In this document: positions 2 to 25,269 of the stretch, in pieces
Numbering within the stretch: the first letter of the stretch is position 1
Layout of the letters: each line of letters begins with the position of its first letter
Virus record (IMG/VR): IMGVR_UViG_3300009164_000047
Location: 33,705 to 97,704 of that record
From: a virus
Length of the DNA stretch: 64,000 bases
Strand: one strand, 5' to 3'
Made by a program: the position numbers and the translations under genes
Notes under the pieces: generated by a model
Databases searched by the model: none
Told to the model about the DNA's origin: nothing
The model's input: the letters and a program-made list of their open reading frames with translations, nothing else

Positions 2-3000
2 GAAGTATATGTGTACAACGGAAAGTCATGGGATAGGATTGGATTAGAACAGGGTACAATTCAAATCAAAGAATCATTGTGGAATTATTCTGGATACAAA
101 ATTGGTTTTGACAGTAATTTCTTTGATTTAGATGCATATGATTCATATCCTTCAATGGAAACTCGCTATATAATTCGTGCATTGAATGAACAAATTTACA
201 CAGAGACATTGCGAATTCACCGTAATAAGAGTTTGATATTGTTGTTTGAATATATTGTAAGCGAGAATACAACTTCACAAAACAACTTAACTTGGTTAAA
301 TAAAACATCATTGGTAGATGTACAGCATACATTACGTGAATTAGCACAAGATAAAAACTATAAGCGTGATAATCAAGTGTTCTTGGAAGGCTTCATTAAT
401 GAAGTTAAACCTTATCGTGTTGTCATTAAAGAATTCTTATTGAAGTACACTAAAGCAGAATCATTTACTGGACAGGTAACTGACTTTGATTTGCCGGGCA
501 GATATAGCGTTACTACAGATAGATTTATAACACCTAATTTAGTTTTTGATTCAGTAAGAGCTACCGGACAAGTTTTACCTACTGATGCTATCTGGACTGA
601 TAGTTTATATTCTGACTGGTATAGTAATTACGGTATATCATTGACCGGAAGTGCCAACAATCCAATCACATCTTTGGAAATATATTTAGATAAAATTAGC
701 GATGTTTTGTATGTAGATGATGCTTTTGGATTACCAGTAACTGGAAGAATTAAAATTGATAATGAGTACATTAACTATTCTCAAATTGACAGAGAAAAGG
801 GTAAATTATACAGTTTAACTCGCGGCGCAGGTGATAGTGATGTAGCTAACCATATCCCAGGAACAATTGTGTATATAGATTTACCGGGAGTAGTACTGTT
901 AGATTCAGGAAGAGACTATATTGACCCTCCACAGATTAGTGCAGTAATTGATTCAACAATTTATCCTGCACCAACTAGACCTGCTACTCTTATACCAGTT
1001 ATGTCAGGTGGAAAAGTAATTGACATTACTGTAACTGATCCGGGATTAGGATATACAACTAAACCGGATATTGTTATTCAAGCATCAATCACTATATTAT
1101 TTGATAGTGCAAATATTAACTACAATGATAATACTATAAACATTAATGCAGTTTCGTTATTAACCGGAGATGCAGTAAAATATATCAAATCATTAACAAG
1201 TCTTGGTATCTCTGGGTTACAAAACAAAAAATATTACTATGTGCGAGTGATTAGTACAGACAGTTTATTTTATAAAAAATCAGTTATAGCATTGTACACT
1301 ACCAAGAATAATGCAATGATAGATTCACGCAGAGTGAATTTAGCTGAAAGTATAAACAGCATTAATAACAAGTTGGAAGTTTCTGCAAGAGCAGTACCAA
1401 TAGTATCCAATACACCAACAAGAGAATTAACTTCTACACTAAAATTTGACAGAACAAGTTATAGAACTAAGGTCGAAGAATGGACATCCGGTGAATACTA
1501 CGGTAGTGTTGTTACTAATAATGGTGTAGAAAGTAGTTTAGACTTATCAGTGAACTATGCTATACCGTATCCGGGACTTACTGGAGTAGCAACTCACCCA
1601 GGATCAGCTACTGACGGAACTGGTGCAATATTTACAATATACAATATATTGTTTGGTCTATCTTACGATGCTGAAATTACTTTTGCAGGTGCATCATACG
1701 ATGTGGGTGATATTATAACCATATCAGGTGCCAATCTAAGTGGAATCTCATCTACAAATAATTGCGTCTTAACAGTTACTACAATTAGTAATGTAGGCGG
1801 AATAACTTCAGTGACTGTTGCAGGCACGCCATCAACCGTTACACGTGCAAGTATTCAACAAGCAGTATTACCAATCACTAACGTGAGTTCTATAAATGCA
1901 ACCATTGCATCTACTACTAACGGTATTATATACGGTAATCAATTTGCCGCTGCTGGAACTATTAATGGATTGTTTATTTCAGGAATGGTACTAAGCGGTG
2001 GAACTATTCCTGCAAACTCAGTTCACATTACTAAAGTTGTAACTGCTAAATTTACTGCTGAAATTTTTGGTACATCGTCAGTTAAAATATTGACAGGAAC
2101 TCTACCAAAAATAGGCATGCTGGTTACCGGATTTACAATACCAGCAAATACATTTGTTATTTCTGTGTCTAGTGAATACGTAGAGTTGTCTAACATTATC
2201 AGAATAACACCGGCAGTTCAGTTTATAGACTTTACTGGAGTGATTTACGATCTTAACACCACCGTTACTACTCAATTAAATGTTGCAATAACCGGCACAT
2301 CAGGTGATTCCGTAGCAACATTAAATTATTCAGTTACAAACTTACAACCAGGACAAATTAAAGGTCTACAGTTATATTTTTATAAAATTATTAATCCATA
2401 TACATATGTTGATTCAAGACCCGGCGGTGCAACTATCAAGGTGTTTAAGCCAAACTTCTCTGCTCAAAACATAACAAATAAGTACTTCATTCAAATTATT
2501 GATCCTGGTACTATTTACGCTAATGGTGATGTTATTGTAATTAACGGTAGCAATTTAGGTGGTGTGAATGGTATTAATGATGCTAAGATTACAGTAAAGC
2601 TAGCAGATTATATAACTAATGAAATAAGCGTATATGAATTAAACGGGGTAGCAGTTAACTCTTTTGAAAAATACTATGTCAAGCCTATTAGTCAGACACA
2701 AGTTGCGTTATTCTATGACACCTCACTAGTAAGACCTGTACCAAACCATGCATTTACATTCCTAAGTGGTGATTATGCATATATTCCAGAACCAATCTAC
2801 ATTACATCCGGACACACTCGCAGTCCATATAGTTTAGTAACATTCAATAATACATTATATCGTTGCATGGTAAGTAATAATGATATTGCATTTGATTTTA
2901 ACAAATGGGAAGAAGTACGTAGTGATGAATTTGATTTGAATGCATTAGATAGAATCATGGGATTCTACAATCCAACAGACAACATGCCAGGTAAAAATCT

Positions 3001-6000
3001 ACCAATGTTAGTATCTGGTATTGATTATCCAAATAATACTTACTTTGGTCAACCGTTTGATGACTTAGTTAATGAACTAGATACTGTATTGAAGGATCAA
3101 ATATTCTATCCAAGCAATATCAATTTACGTGGTATTATCGTAGCCGAACAAAACTTGTTGGTTGCAATTGGTGATACTGAATCATATTCTATTATATTGT
3201 TAAGTCACGATACTGGCGTAACTTGGACTATGAAACAAATCAGTAAAAATGTATTAAATGTACAAGACATTAGATATGATGAAGGTCATTATGTTATCGT
3301 TACAAGTAATATACATTCACCTGTCGTAACCAGCAACGACTTAGAAAATTGGGTATCAGTGGGAGAATTTACACCATACGATACTAATAAATTTGATGAT
3401 GTGGGATATGATAGTTCATCAATTTCTGCACCAAAAGATAAATTGTACAGTGTAATTTATAACAACAATTTCTATATTGCTGTGGGTGATGAATTACTAA
3501 TCAGCCCGGACAGCTATACTTGGAGTGTTCAATATAGCTTCAGAAGTTCATTACCTCAACAATTTAAACGTGTAGCTTATGTATCTTCTGCATTCTTTGA
3601 CGGTTATATTGCTACTGGTCTTGGTACAATTACTAATACTACTGTTAATGGATACACATCATTGGTATCAACTTCTAAAACTTTCAGAAGTTTGAACGGT
3701 CTTGATTGGGAAGAAATATTACCAAGAGTAGTATCAACTGGATTAAATGTAGTATTATCATCTGGAACAGCTATTGTTTTAGCTGGTGACAATTATCAAG
3801 TTTTCACATCAACTAACTCTCATGCATGGGATCCGGCATCAATTGACGGTACTGCAAAGACATCTAATCTGTTAAACGGTATATATGCTAACGGAATGTT
3901 TGTTATTGTGGGCGATGATGGTACCATTATAACTAGCCCGGATGGAATTATTTGGAGTGAAGTAGTATCTAATACTACCAAGACATTGACTGCAATAACA
4001 TATAGTGACGATAATTGGATTATTGTTGGATCCGATGCTACTATTCTACGTAGCACTGATGCTGTTATATGGCAAAATGTATCATTGATTAAGACAGAAG
4101 AAAACTTCTATCAAATCAAAGGTGATCCATTCATTTCTGGTTATGGACCAGAGGAATTAGTTCCCGGTGTATTAACAGATACGTTAACCATGACTGTTAC
4201 AACTCGCCCGGGAAGTACATGGCTAGTTGAAGATTATCCATTCAATGGATTTACAGTTAAAAAATTCATACATGCACTTACTGATTTACCAATAGACTTT
4301 TCTCTGATTACCGAGAATCCTGCACACGTTGCATTATACTTAATGGATTCTTCTACTAAGTTAGGTTTTAGAATTTATCAAGATATAACACCTACTACAT
4401 CTAATAGCTATTCATATTCAATCAATTGGATTACTCAATCAATCACGCTAAGTGCTTTGGATGGTGTTAGTTTGTATGATAACACAAAATATCTACAAAT
4501 TGAAGTATATGAATTTGGTAATGGCAATCAAGAAGTTAGAAGTAATTCGCAGAACTTGCCTTTACGTATTGATCCTGTTACAGGTTATAGTGAAATATGG
4601 TTAGGTTATGCATACGCACCGGAAATATATGCTACTCCTGTTGTTTACTTAAACGGTAACCCTTTAATATATGAGGATGATTACAAAATATCAACCACCG
4701 CATCTAAAGAAGCTAAATTATTGTTCACTACAACATACCATTCTGAAACTGATTATTTAAGTTTTGCAATTATGGGTCTAGAAATTAACTCTAAACAAAA
4801 TAGTTTCAGTATTCCACAAACACAAGTATTTGAAGTTGCACCATCTATAACTGAATTAGTTCTCACTAATTTTGTTGGATTGTCTTCAGATGGTTATACC
4901 AATGATGTAGATGCTATTGTAGAATATAATGGTGTAAGATTAATTCCAACTATCCAGTATACTATTGCAGTTGATCCTAATTCAGAAATTGGTACAGTGA
5001 CATTATTGTTTAATCCGGCATCTGGCGAAGATTTGATTAGTGTTACTACATTCCATGATACCCGTGACCAATACTTGTTAACAGAAAACATTAACACATT
5101 ACAAGTAACTCCACTATTAACTGTCAACACTGATAAAGGTGAGTTGACATTAATCGTTACTACGGTACCTGAATTTGTCACCGGTGACTTAATAACAATT
5201 GATGGTATTAACGGTACTACACAATTAAATGGTAATGAATATTATGTTAGATTAATGACTCCTGTAACAGAGGATGCAATAACATATCAACCAATTAAAC
5301 TATTCTATGATGTATTGTTGGCAAAACCAGTAACTGGTAAAATACTAACAAGTTATGTGTCTGGTGGATATATTTGGAAATCTGACACTACACATGAAAT
5401 AAATCAACCTGATTTAACGTTGACTAATATTAATAGATTGTTTGTGACTATTAACGGATACAAAGTTGACAACAGTAGACTTAAACTTAAGAGTGGAAAC
5501 AAGCTTAATATTTTAGAACCTATTACTACGGGTGATGTTGTTTTGATTACCAGTATGATTACAAACGCTACACCCAATCAACTAGTATATGTAAATCACA
5601 TTGATAAAAATGGTGAACAATCAATATACCGAGCAAATACAGGTGTCAGAACTTGGTTGACAAAAAACTTAGAAGTACTTGACAGTCAAATATATGTCGA
5701 AGATGTAGCTAAGTTGTTAGATTTAGTCAAAACAACCGTAGTTGCAGCTACAATAAATGAAAATGTTGCGTGCCTTGTAAATTACGCAGTCGAGACCATT
5801 AAGGAAATTTCTGTATATAATATTTCTACACTAACTCAAATAAGTACAGAAAATATTACATTGGCTATTAAGAATTCTAGACCAGTGATTTATATAGCTA
5901 AAGGTGCTTCTGAAGGTGATAACTTGGAGGTTTCACTACGACTAGGTAACACTATCAATATTGGTGGGGAAATTATTACTTTTAAGAAAGTTAATACTGA

Positions 6001-12376: not shown

Positions 12377-13792
12377 ATGACAGACGAAGAAAAATATGCA
12401 AAGCATATTACAAAAACACGTGACGAGTTGAATGAAGTTAGTCCTAGCTATTGTGTAGCTAAGTGGAAACAAGTCACCATGCATTTGCAGAATGGACATA
12501 CACATAGCTGTCATCACCCACGCACACACTTAGTTCCTGTAGAAGAATTAAAACAGAATTACAAAGCACTTCACAATACTTCATACAAGAAACAACAACG
12601 TAAATTGATGTTAGAAGGTGTGCGTCCAAGTGAATGTGATTATTGCTGGCGTGCAGAAGATGCAGGTAATATTAGTGACAGAACATACAAAAGTGCTGAC
12701 CACTCTTGGGCATATGGTCACTTAAAAGAACTACCTAAATTAGAATGGGACGCTGATATAGACCCTAGTTACGTTGAGATTAGTTTTAGTAGCGTATGTA
12801 ATTTTAAATGTAGCTATTGCAGTCCAAACATCAGTAGTCAATGGATGGAAGAAATTGAAAGATATGGTGCTTATCCAACAAGCAATAAGTTCAACAATCT
12901 ACAATGGTTTCAACAGAATGACCAGATACCTATACCTAACAACCAAGACAATCCATATGTAGATGCGTTCTGGAAATGGTGGCCTACTATGTATACAGAA
13001 CTAAAGCAATTTAGAATTACTGGTGGTGAGCCTTTACTAAGTAAAAACACATTTAGGGTACTTGATTATATCATTGAGAACCCTGCAAATATACATTTAA
13101 CATTTAGCGTAAACACGAACATGAATGTACCTGATGAATTATACAATAAGTTTATTGAAAAGTTAAAAATAATTCAGGAGCAGGGTAAGATTGGGAGTTT
13201 ACAAATCTTTACAAGTGCAGAAGCACATGGAGCACAAGCAGAATATATACGTAACGGTATGAATTACGAACAATGGTTAAAGAATTTGCATCGTATGATT
13301 AATGAAGTACCTAGAGTAGCAATTACAATTATGAGTACTTACAATATTCTAAGCATTCCTAGCTACCGGCAGTTCTTGCAGGATATGCTTGACATTAGAT
13401 TACAGTATAGAGACATTGCATACAAAAATAACAGAAATCCTGTGACAATAGATATGCCTTATCTACGTCACCCATCTCATCAAGCAAGTTTCATTATACC
13501 AGAATATTTGTTACATTATGTAGAAGAACAAATTAAATTTATGGAAGCACATCCCGAGCCTAGCACGCCTGGACAAGAATATACAGGCTTTTATGAAAAT
13601 GAAATATATAAGTTGCGTAGAATTTACAATATTATCAAAGCAGAGATTGATTCCGGTAATGATAACACCACTAATCGTAAAGATTTTGTATCGTTTGTAG
13701 ATGAACACGACCGTAGACGCGGTACTAATTTCTTAGAAACATATCCCCAACTAACACAGATGTACACCGAATGGAAAAATTTATTGACATAA
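12377..13792 (+). CDS. Radical SAM protein with N-terminal Cys-rich (twitch-like) region
   Basis: CNFKCSYC (CxxxCxxC), ITGGEP, and additional Cys in C..KW, SCHH and CDYCW. Confidence 0.85.
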   Translation: MTDEEKYAKHITKTRDELNEVSPSYCVAKWKQVTMHLQNGHTHSCHHPRTHLVPVEELKQNYKALHNTSYKKQQRKLMLEGVRPSECDYCWRAEDAGNISDRTYKSADHSWAYGHLKELPKLEWDADIDPSYVEISFSSVCNFKCSYCSPNISSQWMEEIERYGAYPTSNKFNNLQWFQQNDQIPIPNNQDNPYVDAFWKWWPTMYTELKQFRITGGEPLLSKNTFRVLDYIIENPANIHLTFSVNTNMNVPDELYNKFIEKLKIIQEQGKIGSLQIFTSAEAHGAQAEYIRNGMNYEQWLKNLHRMINEVPRVAITIMSTYNILSIPSYRQFLQDMLDIRLQYRDIAYKNNRNPVTIDMPYLRHPSHQASFIIPEYLLHYVEEQIKFMEAHPEPSTPGQEYTGFYENEIYKLRRIYNIIKAEIDSGNDNTTNRKDFVSFVDEHDRRRGTNFLETYPQLTQMYTEWKNLLT

Positions 13793-16946: not shown

Positions 16947-17355
16947 GTTATTGCTGTATGAAGCAAAGAGAAAAGTGTTCTGGACGGGGGTGCGAATCCC
17001 CCCAGGTCCACCATAAGGAAGTTTGTGAAAAGTAAAAGTAAGTTCAGTCGTTTTAATCTTAAAGGCAACATTATGTGGTGCCTAAATTTGCGTAACGGAT
17101 GGGTAAGAATTTACAACACTATAATTCGTTGGAATACCGATTGGACAACTAATTATAGATACTTTTCAATAGAACAAATAAAAGTTTCTTTATGATGGGC
17201 CTGCATAGTTTCGACAGGGCAAGTAGTAACAGAGTGGACAGCACGGTAGGCGATGACCGTTAATCAAGCAAAAAAAGTAAACGCAAACGACTCACAGTTC
17301 GCATTAGCAGCCTAAACACTGCTTAGGGTAAGACATACCTCGTAACAGAAAATCA
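16947..17355 (+). ncRNA. ssrA: Circularly permuted two-piece tmRNA: acceptor piece ~16947-17013, coding piece 17197-~17355
   Basis: The T-arm GGGGG-TGCGAAT-CCCCC plus CAGGTCC-ACCA (ends 17013) precedes GGGCCTG (17197). These form a 7-bp acceptor stem with G3.U70. Also TTTCGAC, helix pairings CAGGGCA/TGTTCTG and ACAGCA/TGCTGT, and the tag frame ANDSQFALAA* at 17283-17315. Confidence 0.95.
17025..17195 (+). CDS. 56-aa ORF within the tmRNA intervening segment (MKSKSKFSRFNLKGNIMWCLNLRNGWVRIYNTIIRWNTDWTTNYRYFSIEQIKVSL)
   Basis: GTG start after TAAGGAAG; the uninterrupted frame fills 171 of the 183 nt between CCA and G+1. Confidence 0.6.
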   Translation: MKSKSKFSRFNLKGNIMWCLNLRNGWVRIYNTIIRWNTDWTTNYRYFSIEQIKVSL

Positions 17356-21194: not shown

Positions 21195-21304
21195 GTGTTT
21201 ACACTGGGTAAAAACAATGATTTTCTCTATGTTATTTTTGATTTTTCCGTGTATAATAACGATATATACTATGACAGTATGTCAAACTTAACCAGGAGAA
21301 AACT

Positions 21305-21376
21305 ATGTGGACAAAACCAACAGCATCTGATATGCGTTTCGGATTTGAAATCACGATGTATATTGCTAACCGCTAA
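21305..21376 (+). CDS. pqqA: Pyrroloquinoline quinone precursor peptide PqqA ([23 protein letters not shown])
   Basis: 23 aa with the PqqA signature W-x-x-P...R-x-G-F-E-x-x-x-Y, where E and Y are the PQQ-forming residues. AGGAG RBS and own terminator. Confidence 0.93.
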
Positions 21377-21391
21377 TATATATTGAAATCA

Positions 21392-21418
21392 AAAAAAGGG
21401 CACTAGTTGCCCTTTTTT
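21392..21418. terminator. Terminator after pqqA (bidirectional form)
   Basis: AAAAAAGGGCA-CTAGT-TGCCCTTTTTT. Confidence 0.85.
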
Positions 21419-21454
21419 CTTTACTGCTTCTGAATAATCATATATACTATTAAC

Positions 21455-21742
21455 ATGAGTACTGAACAAGACAAATTCAACCATTCTAAGCGTTTACTCA
21501 AGGATGAGAACGCCATTAAAAAGCAAACTAGGATTGCTAAATCAGCAGGCATAAAAGTTGACGAACCACATAAGTTTGCCAAACATCATGCATTAGACTG
21601 TGGTAATCCAGAATGTTTTTTATGCGGTAATCCTAGAAAAACACATAAAGATAAGCTAACTCAACAAGAGAAACGTTTATTTCAAGATGTAGAACAAGAG
21701 CGTGATAAACGCAGTAATGGTCTACCAAAAAGTGAAGAATGA
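21455..21742 (+). CDS. Basic hypothetical protein with a His/Cys cluster
   Basis: HHALDCGNPECFLCGNPRK, a possible Zn site. Confidence 0.65.
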   Translation: MSTEQDKFNHSKRLLKDENAIKKQTRIAKSAGIKVDEPHKFAKHHALDCGNPECFLCGNPRKTHKDKLTQQEKRLFQDVEQERDKRSNGLPKSEE

Positions 21743-21808
21743 GACAGTAATATTTCTGTCACATTTTTACTAATAAATACATAATCATTTAAACACTAAG
21801 GAGATAAA

Positions 21809-22372
21809 ATGAGATTTACAAAATTAGCAGTAACATTCGCATCACTATTGATTGCAGGTTCAGTATTTGCTGGAGGCTATGCATCATTGGAATATTATGA
21901 TGAAAGCAATCGTCTAACCGGTGCAGACAACATTAAAGAAGCATTGGTCATCGGTAACAAAGTTGGTGACACAGACTATAGTCTTAAAATGGAAAACAGC
22001 CAAACAGAATTTGGCAGTGGTTCTATTACACAAGGTCTTGAAGTTCGTGTAAAACAATCTTTTGGTGACAAGGGTGGTATCCGTCCTTACTTGGGTGTTC
22101 GCCTGGGTGAAAAAGTATCTAGTTCAACTAACTTTAGTCACTATGCTTTTGATGCAGGAGTCAAGATTCCTCTAGGCGCAGGTTTTACCGGTGATGTTGG
22201 TGCTCGTTATCGTGATGCATTTGATACATCAAACAGTTACACCACACAACGTGCTCACCTTGCAATTGGTTATGAATTAACTAAACAAGACGCAATTGCA
22301 GTTCGCTGGAGCCGTAGCTGGGGTGATGAAGAAAAAGACGCAGTACGTTTACAGTACACACGTAGTTTCTAA
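21809..22372 (+). CDS. Outer-membrane beta-barrel (porin-like) protein
   Basis: Signal peptide ending VFA, alternating amphipathic strands, C-terminal BAM-type signal LQYTRSF. AAGGAG RBS. Confidence 0.8.
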   Translation: MRFTKLAVTFASLLIAGSVFAGGYASLEYYDESNRLTGADNIKEALVIGNKVGDTDYSLKMENSQTEFGSGSITQGLEVRVKQSFGDKGGIRPYLGVRLGEKVSSSTNFSHYAFDAGVKIPLGAGFTGDVGARYRDAFDTSNSYTTQRAHLAIGYELTKQDAIAVRWSRSWGDEEKDAVRLQYTRSF

Positions 22373-22431
22373 TCAGTATTTAAAAAATCGACCGCAACGA
22401 TTGAGCGGAGCTGAAACCCGTAATCAGCACT

Positions 22432-22453
22432 AGGACCCGAAAGGGTCTTTTTT
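22432..22453 (+). terminator. Rho-independent terminator
   Basis: AGGACCC-GAAA-GGGTCTTTTTT. Confidence 0.85.
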
Positions 22454-22454
22454 A

Positions 22455-22483
22455 TTGACAAAAATACCTTGATATGTTATAAT
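22455..22483 (+). promoter_or_regulatory. Sigma70 promoter
   Basis: TTGACA-N17-TATAAT with extended TG. Confidence 0.85.
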
Positions 22484-22489
22484 CTTGCT

Positions 22490-22744
22490 ATGAAGATAGA
22501 AAAAGCAACTGATTGGCAAGATGTGCATACTAAACTGCGTAGTCAAATGCTTAGTATTGGATACAATCCTGATTTGCAACGTATGCTTAACAACATTACT
22601 AATATGGTAAGTGAGTTAAGTAACCTAGAAGTAGATGCTAGACGTACACGCATAGAACATTATGCAAAGGAAAAGGTCAATGAAGTTAATAAAGCCATTG
22701 ACCATTTAGAAAAGTTATTGTTGATAGCACAGTTAATGCGTTAA
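22490..22744 (+). CDS. Helical hypothetical protein (MKIEKATDW...)
   Basis: ATG 7 nt after the -10 box (leaderless); coiled-coil-like. Confidence 0.65.
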   Translation: MKIEKATDWQDVHTKLRSQMLSIGYNPDLQRMLNNITNMVSELSNLEVDARRTRIEHYAKEKVNEVNKAIDHLEKLLLIAQLMR

Positions 22745-24099: not shown

Positions 24100-25269
24100 T
24101 TAAATAAACCAAGTTATAATACTGTATCGTGTGCCTTTAGTTACAGGCATTATTTCATGTGGGTACATAAAGTTACTAGGGAACATTAATACGCTACCCT
24201 TTTTAAGAAAAACTTTCTTTTCTCTATCCCAAAAAGCAAACTCACCGCCTTCATAGTCATCATTTATTGCAAATGAACAACTAACTGCTCTCGGTTGTTT
24301 TAAGAAACTATCAGTATGCTGGATGTAAAATTGTCCTTCATTATATCTTAACAGTTCATAGCCACTATCTTGATCTATTCTAGCTTCTGGAAAAACTTCA
24401 TTATACTTTTGAATTGCAGTAGCGGCAGCTTTAAATAATTCTTCATCTAATGCTTTTCTTATTTCAGGATTTTGCTGAATAACAGCTTGGAAACTTAATC
24501 CAATGGTATCAGTATTCCGTATCTTTGTATCAAGAACTCCTGCACCTATAATAGTTGGTTGCCAGTCATTGCTATTTACATACTCACTTAAAATCCTATC
24601 ACAAAGGTCATCGGAAACAATATTTTCAAATACTTGTATATAATCTTCAATATTCTTTTTGTATTCTACTTTGGGTAACATGACTTCTTTTGTAGCTTCT
24701 GTTCGTTTTTCCATTACTAATTTTTTTGTTTCTTTATCTTTGTTATCAAAGAATGCATAATTTCTATCACCCCTACTACGTACATAATGCAAAAATACTT
24801 GAACATATTCTTGCCCTTGAAATTGTTCACGCCAGTGTTCGGCTTCACAACCCAAATACATCATAGCATCTCCGGATTTTAAATTTAATGATACCTCTTC
24901 ACCGTTTGGTTTTTTAATATAGATGGGCCATTCTGCGTCACCAGCTAAGTGTAGTGTTAAACTAATTTCACACGCATCCCTATCTTTGTGAATTTTTAAA
25001 TCACTGCCTTCTTTATATACTCTTGCATAGGTGTATGTTGGTAACACTGGCTCACCCAAAAAATTATTAATCTGGGGTGTTCTTTCACATAACAATTCTA
25101 AAAAGTCTATATAATTGTAAACTGCATGAGAATTTTCAACTTGAGTGTCACCGGGTAAATTTTCTTCAATACAATAATTTATGAATTTGTTATATAAATG
25201 ATTTGCATGATCCTGTGATATAAAATTAGGGATGTATAGATAGTTATTGTCTATTAATTTCTGATTCAT
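24100..25269 (-). CDS. Tandem two-domain 2OG-Fe(II) oxygenase (prolyl-hydroxylase-like)
   Basis: Domain 1 HKDR...HWR; domain 2 HTD...YEGGEF...FPSNFMYPH..PVTKGTRYS. Confidence 0.85.
   Translation of the reverse strand: MNQKLIDNNYLYIPNFISQDHANHLYNKFINYCIEENLPGDTQVENSHAVYNYIDFLELLCERTPQINNFLGEPVLPTYTYARVYKEGSDLKIHKDRDACEISLTLHLAGDAEWPIYIKKPNGEEVSLNLKSGDAMMYLGCEAEHWREQFQGQEYVQVFLHYVRSRGDRNYAFFDNKDKETKKLVMEKRTEATKEVMLPKVEYKKNIEDYIQVFENIVSDDLCDRILSEYVNSNDWQPTIIGAGVLDTKIRNTDTIGLSFQAVIQQNPEIRKALDEELFKAAATAIQKYNEVFPEARIDQDSGYELLRYNEGQFYIQHTDSFLKQPRAVSCSFAINDDYEGGEFAFWDREKKVFLKKGSVLMFPSNFMYPHEIMPVTKGTRYSIITWFI

Follow-up and report, generated by a model that had tools for sequence, protein, structure and literature searches.

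A stand-alone pqqA gene in a T4-related jumbo phage, with a probable role in supplying the PQQ precursor peptide

A short open reading frame in the window, as the whole 64-kb stretch of phage DNA analysed here is called, is, judged by family models, base composition and gene context, a true pqqA that stands alone within an authentic phage genome. As a functional copy it would probably feed the PqqBCDE enzymes of a Comamonadaceae-type host with their consumable peptide, keeping or raising the supply of PQQ. PqqA is a ribosomal peptide whose Glu15 and Tyr19 become PQQ, one peptide being spent for each PQQ made; PqqD presents it to the radical SAM enzyme PqqE, which joins the Glu to the Tyr, and later steps of the pathway excise and oxidise the cross-linked Glu-Tyr pair. 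The features on which the argument draws are collected in Table 1.

Table 1. Features of the window and, in the last three lines, of GenBank phage records carrying pqqA (positions in the window unless a record is named).
Feature	Position	Strand	Basis or remark
Radical SAM protein, N-terminal twitch-domain family	12377-13792	+	NF033640, 343 bits against a cut-off of 170; conserved in G001-G003; not PqqE-like
Permuted (two-piece) tmRNA, tag ANDSQFALAA	16921-17406	+	ARAGORN; Rfam tmRNA_permuted, 131 bits at 16952-17315
Upstream box AATGATTTTC-TCT-ATGTTA	21216..21234	+	last six bases form a weak -35-like hexamer, 17 nt ahead of the -10
Putative -10 hexamer TATAAT	21252-21257	+	sequence; aligned relatives
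TATATAC box	21263-21269	+	sequence
Predicted mini-mRNA, about 155 nt	21262-21420		folding
Hairpin ATATACT-atgac-AGTATGT, 7 bp including one G-U	21264..21282	+	folding and relatives; at the predicted transcript 5' end
Shine-Dalgarno AGGAG	21294-21298	+	sequence; 6 nt ahead of the ATG
pqqA, 23 codons and TAA, ATG start	21305-21376	+	ORF translation and family models
Pairing of the last six pqqA codons and stop with the AT-rich stretch just 3' (GAUGUAUAUUGCU...AAUAUAUAUUG)	21354-21385	+	fold of the mini-mRNA
Intrinsic terminator AAAAAAGGGCA-CUAGU-UGCCCUUUUUU	21392..21418	+	folding
Three more small units 3' of pqqA	21420-22744	+	each with promoter-like and terminator-like signals
95-aa phrog_4499 gene	21455-21742		downstream of pqqA
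187-aa gene, hydrophobic signal-like N-terminus	21809-22372	+	weak outer-membrane beta-barrel match (Pfam E 0.004, below cut-off)
Terminator	22432-22449		directly ahead of the next feature
Perfect promoter TTGACA-17-TG-TATAAT ahead of a small ORF	22455-22483	+	
389-aa two-domain protein	24100-25269	-	N-half, 'ferrochelatase' PHROGs (phrog_3531, 3e-71-level); C-half, 2OG-Fe(II) oxygenase (PF13640)
pqqA in Melnitz-1 (L004, MZ577095.1)	2961-3066		unannotated or opposite-strand 'hypothetical protein' type; Melnitz1EXVC043M_151
pqqA in L006 (MW202481.1)	2067-2195		unannotated or opposite-strand 'hypothetical protein' type; UOF77531.1
pqqA in Venkman (L005)	3001-3069		gap between gp27 and gp26; no gp28 listed

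The gene, its phage and its probable host

In a profile search the peptide matches both PqqA models over their full length at about twice their own cut-offs, Pfam PF08042 at 40.2 bits (cut-off 21.1, E 3e-10, model positions 1-19 of 19) and the NCBIfam equivalog TIGR02107 at 40.4 bits (cut-off 20, positions 1-21 of 21), which confirms the 23-aa PqqA proposed in an earlier note written from the letters alone, for which a search with such models had been named as one check. The ORF is 72 nt long and its product, at 23 aa, falls within the size of the family (about 20-30 aa, with a W-x-x-P leader); Trp2 and Pro5 form that N-terminal motif, for which binding by PqqD is predicted, and the core FGFEITMY holds E15 and Y19, the E-x-x-x-Y residues of the cross-link. 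The gene does not stand at the head of a pqqABCDE operon, as neither the record nor its relatives hold pqqB-E. Such a position is typical of the family and not defining, because orphan pqqA copies exist in bacteria as well (PMC4109929; several Methyloversatilis loci).

The window makes up the final 64 kb of an IMG/VR virus record of 97,704 bp. CheckV puts that record at 28% completeness, so that the full genome would measure about 350 kb. Among its genes are those for a large terminase, a gp32-like single-stranded DNA-binding protein, a RecA/UvsX-like protein, thymidylate synthase, a non-specific endonuclease and giant LamG/fn3 virion proteins, and the terminase is 49-52% identical to those of the jumbo myoviruses Phosso, PA5oct and Atu_ph07; by gene content and estimated size the phage is a T4-related jumbo myovirus of about 350 kb. 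Three IMG/VR relatives were used for comparison: G001 (356 kb, 96% complete), whose terminase is 56% identical and which shares 36 of 84 ORFs, and G002 (166 kb) and G003 (148 kb), both colinear with this phage over the tail/fibre module at 30-73% amino acid identity. Megablast of the 4 kb around pqqA against GenBank phages gave no match. The gene upstream of pqqA codes for 1255 aa, with LamG and fn3 domains and matches to virion-protein PHROGs, and the one downstream is the 95-aa phrog_4499 gene; G003 has a homologue of the latter (57% identity) behind its own pqqA, in the same order. Phage genes therefore flank pqqA on both sides, as a phage-borne auxiliary metabolic gene requires.

Several neighbouring features merit description. 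The three further small units beyond pqqA are the 95-aa gene, the 187-aa gene and a small ORF behind the perfect promoter that follows directly on a terminator. Lying between the late fibre gene and a convergent operon, the stretch resembles a moron-type region. The window also encodes, on the minus strand, a 389-aa protein whose 'ferrochelatase' PHROG label may be wrong, because its N-terminal half also weakly resembles a 2OG-oxygenase. The permuted tmRNA falls under a single Rfam model, so that the tmRNA_permuted score does not separate an alpha-type from a beta-type host.

No match to pqqB, C, D or E was obtained anywhere in the 97.7-kb record, which covers about 28% of this phage's genome; the 96%-complete G001, G002 and G003 likewise lack pqqB-E, giving only generic radical-SAM matches of 22 bits against a PqqE cut-off of 381 and, in G001, a single weak tblastn match among the pqqB-E queries (E 5.7e-4, 22% identity). 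A short-ORF screen of phages, one of the checks that the earlier note had suggested, found pqqA in G001-G003 and in at least 189 other viral contigs (two pattern scans of IMG/VR combined; GC 0.30-0.47, 1.55 Mb in total). Each of these contigs holds one intact pqqA and no match to pqqB-E, whereas a control tblastn of 120 bacterial pqqA loci found pqqB in 93, pqqC in 82, pqqD in 79 and pqqE in 70. The absence of pqqBCDE that had been read from the window thus extends to the record, to G001 and to the other viral contigs. PQQ-dependent dehydrogenases, alcohol dehydrogenases included, were likewise absent from this record and from G001-G003. An initial IMG/VR pattern, W-x-K-P...G-x-E-[IV]-T-x-Y, had matched two contigs only (L002 and L003), in neither of which did a search for FGFE[IV]TMY find a PqqA ORF. 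CAKLQF020000010.1 (L010, 'Acinetobacter phage MD-2021a', 144 kb) was rejected as a phage case and used as a control, as it carries ppk, a 5'-nucleotidase and a full pqqABCDE and looks like bacterial chromosome sequence filed as phage.

The phage copy shows the marks of amelioration and of selection. It differs from a viral relative (L161) by 12 synonymous codon changes and 1 non-synonymous change, and from the Rhodoferax copy L099 by the same numbers, a pattern from which purifying selection on the phage PqqA is judged to be strong. Local GC at pqqA is 0.37 against 0.36 for the phage and a median of 0.63 for bacterial pqqA loci, and GC3 is 0.36 against 0.50-0.68 in the closest bacterial copies; on these values the gene is ameliorated to the base composition of the phage. 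Among the matches listed for a leader-only IMG/VR pattern, which specifies nothing past Phe14 and leaves the E-x3-Y core free, E15-x3-Y19 and the stop after residue 23 are kept in all 119 viral copies. Homology to a host gene (91% identity to a Rhodoferax PqqA) is accordingly found together with retention by selection in phages (the 12:1 codon ratio, and presence in at least 189 viral contigs).

The peptide also offers a lead to the host. Its exact 12-residue C-terminus occurs in at least 120 bacterial contigs, nearly all titled Betaproteobacteria, the exceptions being a few MAGs with unspecific titles and four that say Bifidobacterium and are probably mislabelled; the Burkholderiales-like look that had been ascribed to the ITMYIANR ending is borne out by these titles. 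The closest full peptide is that of the Rhodoferax MAG L099, identical over the last 20 residues, and near variants come from Rhodoferax, Polaromonas, Albidiferax, Acidovorax and Limnohabitans. In a sample of the family of the closest hosts, 66 of 301 genomes have pqqA, the best match being Rhodoferax G006 at 91%, and the model of PQQ-dependent alcohol dehydrogenases, TIGR03075, matches at E 1e-10 or better in four of the five genomes with the closest PqqA, three of them above the cut-off. From this 23-aa peptide and the record titles of the bacterial contigs with matching peptides, the host is probably a freshwater Comamonadaceae-type betaproteobacterium rather than a Methylophilaceae methylotroph.

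Expression signals around pqqA

The earlier note had read a TATAAT and a TATATA box ahead of pqqA, and both are present. TATAAT by itself shows no enrichment over chance in 36% GC DNA, and it is missing from the consensus promoter scan because its -35 is weak; an extended -10 was considered and rejected, the preceding bases being GTG and not TGn. What speaks for the hexamer is the alignment of upstream regions, in which the -10 position of relatives reads TACTAT, TACAAT or TACACT (G001, G003 and contig L230), 17-18 nt after a -35-like ATGTnn. A box of the form (A)ATCATGATTTTC-N2-3-(T)ATGT stands ahead of pqqA in this phage, G001, G003, L230 and L239, followed 17-18 nt on by a -10-like hexamer, and the alignment backs TATAAT as the putative promoter -10. 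The claim for the two boxes thus holds as to their presence and as to the aligned position of TATAAT, and falls short for TATAAT as a signal on its own. Measured against the consensus this is a weak promoter, and transcription may instead reach pqqA by read-through from the late structural gene ahead of it.

A related box, AAATCATGAG-N7-TCCATGATTTC-N2-GATGY, precedes pqqA in the closest Comamonadaceae genomes, where the leader hairpins differ. A regular expression for the box, written post hoc after the sequences had been seen, has matches in 15 of the 184 viral upstream regions (0.3 expected from shuffles) and in 4 of the 119 bacterial ones (0.0 expected). The word ATGATTTTC was rejected as a general promoter motif of this phage since it occurs in a single exact copy in the 64 kb. 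In three Polaromonas and Rhodoferax loci (L014, L046 and L066), with peptides of the WTAP/WTTP type, a sigma-54-like GGCAT-N6-TTGCAT about 90-100 nt upstream of pqqA replaces the ATCATGA/CCATGATTTC box of the closest hosts, and pqqA promoters therefore differ among neighbouring Comamonadaceae lineages.

The predicted transcript would begin with a hairpin whose counterpart, ACATACT-loop-AGTATGT, is found at the equivalent place in G001, G002 (L133/L176) and L230, with a variant in G003; the pattern occurs in none of 119 bacterial pqqA upstream regions and has no second copy within the window. The mini-mRNA folds at -36.2 kcal/mol (z -3.4), the 5' hairpin forming in both the minimum free energy and the centroid folds and the Shine-Dalgarno sequence lying open in the centroid fold. 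The AGGAG ribosome-binding site named in the earlier note is in place, and a Shine-Dalgarno-like motif stands at the equivalent distance in all 121 viral pqqA ORFs examined. The gene's own terminator, likewise claimed before, was upheld by folding: it has an 11-bp stem and six terminal U, with -13.4 kcal/mol and z -3.4, and of 200 shuffles a single one reached an equally good fold; the consensus terminator scan does not list it. A hairpin followed by a T-run within about 80 nt accompanies 60 of 121 viral pqqA genes. The end of pqqA also pairs, in the folded mini-mRNA, with the AT-rich stretch just 3' of it; this pairing may provide a further 3' stabiliser or may have come about by chance in sequence so rich in A and T.

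From these signals we infer that the phage retains a host-type pqqA promoter element and has the gene packed as a stable, strongly translated small transcript. It is conceivable, at rather long odds, that the arrangement goes further and forms a portable cassette, in which the host pqqA promoter box (AATCATGATTTTC-N3-ATGT in the phage against TCCATGATTTC-N2-GATG in the host) is combined with a phage-specific 5' hairpin, so that output would be wired to the factor controlling the host's pqqA and the whole could move between unrelated phages as a unit; movement of this kind is suggested because pqqA sits at a different genomic position in G001. Were it true, a surplus of PQQ might possibly also mask PqqU-type phage receptors.

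Possible roles of the phage peptide

The explanation that we consider probable is the supply of substrate. In this model pqqA would be transcribed as the mini-mRNA of about 155 nt from a promoter retaining the host-type pqqA box; the transcript would open with the 5' hairpin, carry the strong ribosome-binding site and stop at the intrinsic terminator. The peptide would be passed to the host's PqqD, PqqE, PqqB and PqqC, and the supply of PQQ to periplasmic quinoprotein dehydrogenases, and hence respiratory energy, would be kept or raised during phage production. We infer translation during infection, acceptance of the peptide by the host enzymes, PqqA as the limit on PQQ in infected cells, and a benefit to the phage. 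That phages carry the consumable always and the enzymes never fits such a role. Methylophilaceae hold 3-12 copies of pqqA beside a single pqqBCDEFG cluster (PMC4109929), and extra dosage of PqqA is therefore something that cells themselves select. The matches to PQQ-dependent dehydrogenases in the candidate hosts count on the same side, and an auxiliary gene supplying substrate to the host pathway, as the earlier note had proposed, would be the reading best supported by these matches, by the core kept in 119 of 119 copies, by selection and by the Methylophilaceae copies; it may act during host shut-off, as that note presumed. Catalysis does not use up PQQ, which is bound tightly as a cofactor, and the benefit of new PQQ within one infection cycle is therefore not self-evident. 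In addition, neither this phage nor G001-G003 appears to bring a new apo-dehydrogenase that would have to be filled, which also counts against substrate supply.

A different use of the same product, to which we give a low probability, is the masking of a receptor. Extra PqqA could lead to secreted PQQ that closes a PqqU-type TonB-dependent importer on the infected cell and its neighbours and so blocks adsorption by other phages. The requirements for pathway and peptide are those of substrate supply, and the selection and the 119 of 119 conserved cores fit equally; there is also a precedent, as a coliphage that depends on the PqqU transporter is blocked by PQQ, which closes that transporter (PMC12124388). 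However, there is no sign that this phage or the competitor phages of its hosts use a PqqU-like receptor, PQQ producers secrete PQQ already, and the window lacks pointers such as a TonB-like exclusion protein.

PqqD binds the W-x-x-P leader part of PqqA, and this part is conserved in the phage peptide, as it would be if the over-expressed peptide were a decoy or inhibitor that occupies the host's PqqD and PqqE and so stops PQQ synthesis or saves SAM. A decoy has no need of reactive residues, yet none of the 119 listed viral copies departs from E15, Y19, the spacing between them or the exact length, and functional host peptides have the identical core; selection, phage-like GC, core retention and the gene order of G003 together argue against an unreactive decoy. 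Moreover, bacteria with 3-12 copies of pqqA are not inhibited by them (PMC4109929). We regard inhibition as very improbable, and beyond the conserved leader nothing was seen in favour of the decoy or the antioxidant device that the earlier note had offered as alternatives.

The twitch-domain radical SAM protein encoded in the window and conserved in G001-G003 could in principle turn PqqA into a product other than PQQ, the more so as peptide maturases are known among twitch/SPASM enzymes. However, its gene lies 7.5 kb from pqqA and does not adjoin it, its similarity to PqqE is confined to the radical SAM core, and no PqqD-like recognition element was found; Pfam assigns no family to the genes around it. 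The 2.7-6 kb examined around pqqA in seven GenBank phages of 35-44 kb hold no radical SAM gene, and a dedicated phage enzyme is in our view hardly credible. Chimeras can occur among metagenomic contigs and the gene is very small, but a chimeric assembly with host DNA, which the earlier note had raised as an objection and which was not borne out, or a recent unselected host capture is a negligible prospect, for GC and GC3 match the phage and not any bacterial pqqA locus, phage genes lie on both flanks, pqqA and in part its gene order recur in G001-G003, synonymous sites are heavily diverged with the protein kept, and selection, composition, the 119 of 119 cores and the G003 order together rule it out.

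Known counterparts and what the phage gene adds

Viral PqqA has been described before. Coutinho et al. 2020 (Microbiome 8:163) reported it in T4-like Methylophilaceae phages of Lake Baikal, population VP_266, and proposed a PQQ-boosting role (PMC7678222), and pqqA, pqqD and pqqE appear among the viral genes of a 2026 virome survey (PMC13188868). Like VP_266, the present phage is a large T4-related freshwater phage with an orphan pqqA that is read as a PQQ-boosting auxiliary gene. However, VP_266 was assigned to Methylophilaceae and has a methanol dehydrogenase (PMC7678222), whereas this phage and G001-G003 are without a PQQ-dependent dehydrogenase; the core of the present PqqA is of a non-Methylophilaceae Burkholderiales type, and the clade is one of jumbo phages of about 350 kb.

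In GenBank, pqqA is carried alone by ten records from cultured Methylophilales phages, among them Venkman, Melnitz with three variants, MEP301, MEP401, MEP402 and P19250A, and by one from an uncultured Caudoviricetes phage. As in the present phage, the gene of the Methylophilales phages is an orphan of 23-24 aa with a Shine-Dalgarno sequence and no pqqB-E, its product 65-73% identical to the peptide described here, and in Venkman and P19250A a terminator-like hairpin with a T-run follows it. By contrast, their core reads ...TEMRFGFEVTMYVMNK (in Melnitz ...MYIMTR), their hosts are obligate methylotrophs, and, except for Melnitz (142 kb, Kyanoviridae), they are phages of 35-44 kb unrelated to this one. 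In all seven GenBank phage records inspected pqqA is unannotated or lies under a wrong-strand hypothetical CDS, in agreement with the expectation of the earlier note that standard gene callers would miss it.

Among bacterial genes the phage copy is closest to those of Rhodoferax, Albidiferax, Polaromonas and Limnohabitans, sharing the C-terminal 20 residues with L099, 91% identity with G006 and a related upstream box. It departs from the closest hosts in starting MWTKP in place of MKWEKP or MKWQTP, in its different leader hairpin, in having no pqqB after it and in its lower GC3 (0.36 against 0.50-0.68). As an orphan it resembles the extra 'orphan' pqqA copies of Methylophilaceae, which stand without pqqB-G (PMC4109929).

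With viral PqqA in print since 2020 (PMC7678222), the novelty of the finding is lower than the earlier note implied, and what it adds is incremental. Added here are the presence of pqqA with partial synteny in what is, by its sequence relationships, a jumbo-phage clade of about 350 kb; the contrast in pqqB-E, found in none of at least 189 viral contigs and, gene by gene, in 70-93 of 120 bacterial loci; the conservation of E-x3-Y as gauged by a core-free pattern; and a promoter box apparently common to host and phage. At 72 nt, pqqA is among the smallest auxiliary metabolic genes known; most gene callers set their length cut-off higher, and counts made from viromes therefore miss it. The pairing of phages that carry the substrate gene only with bacterial loci that carry the enzymes points indirectly to the supply of PqqA, and not the level of the enzymes, as what limits PQQ synthesis in vivo. 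The pattern known from small phages of obligate methylotrophs is extended to a jumbo clade of about 350 kb and to Comamonadaceae-type hosts, which suggests that phages may value PQQ-dependent periplasmic oxidation generally, and not methanol oxidation alone.
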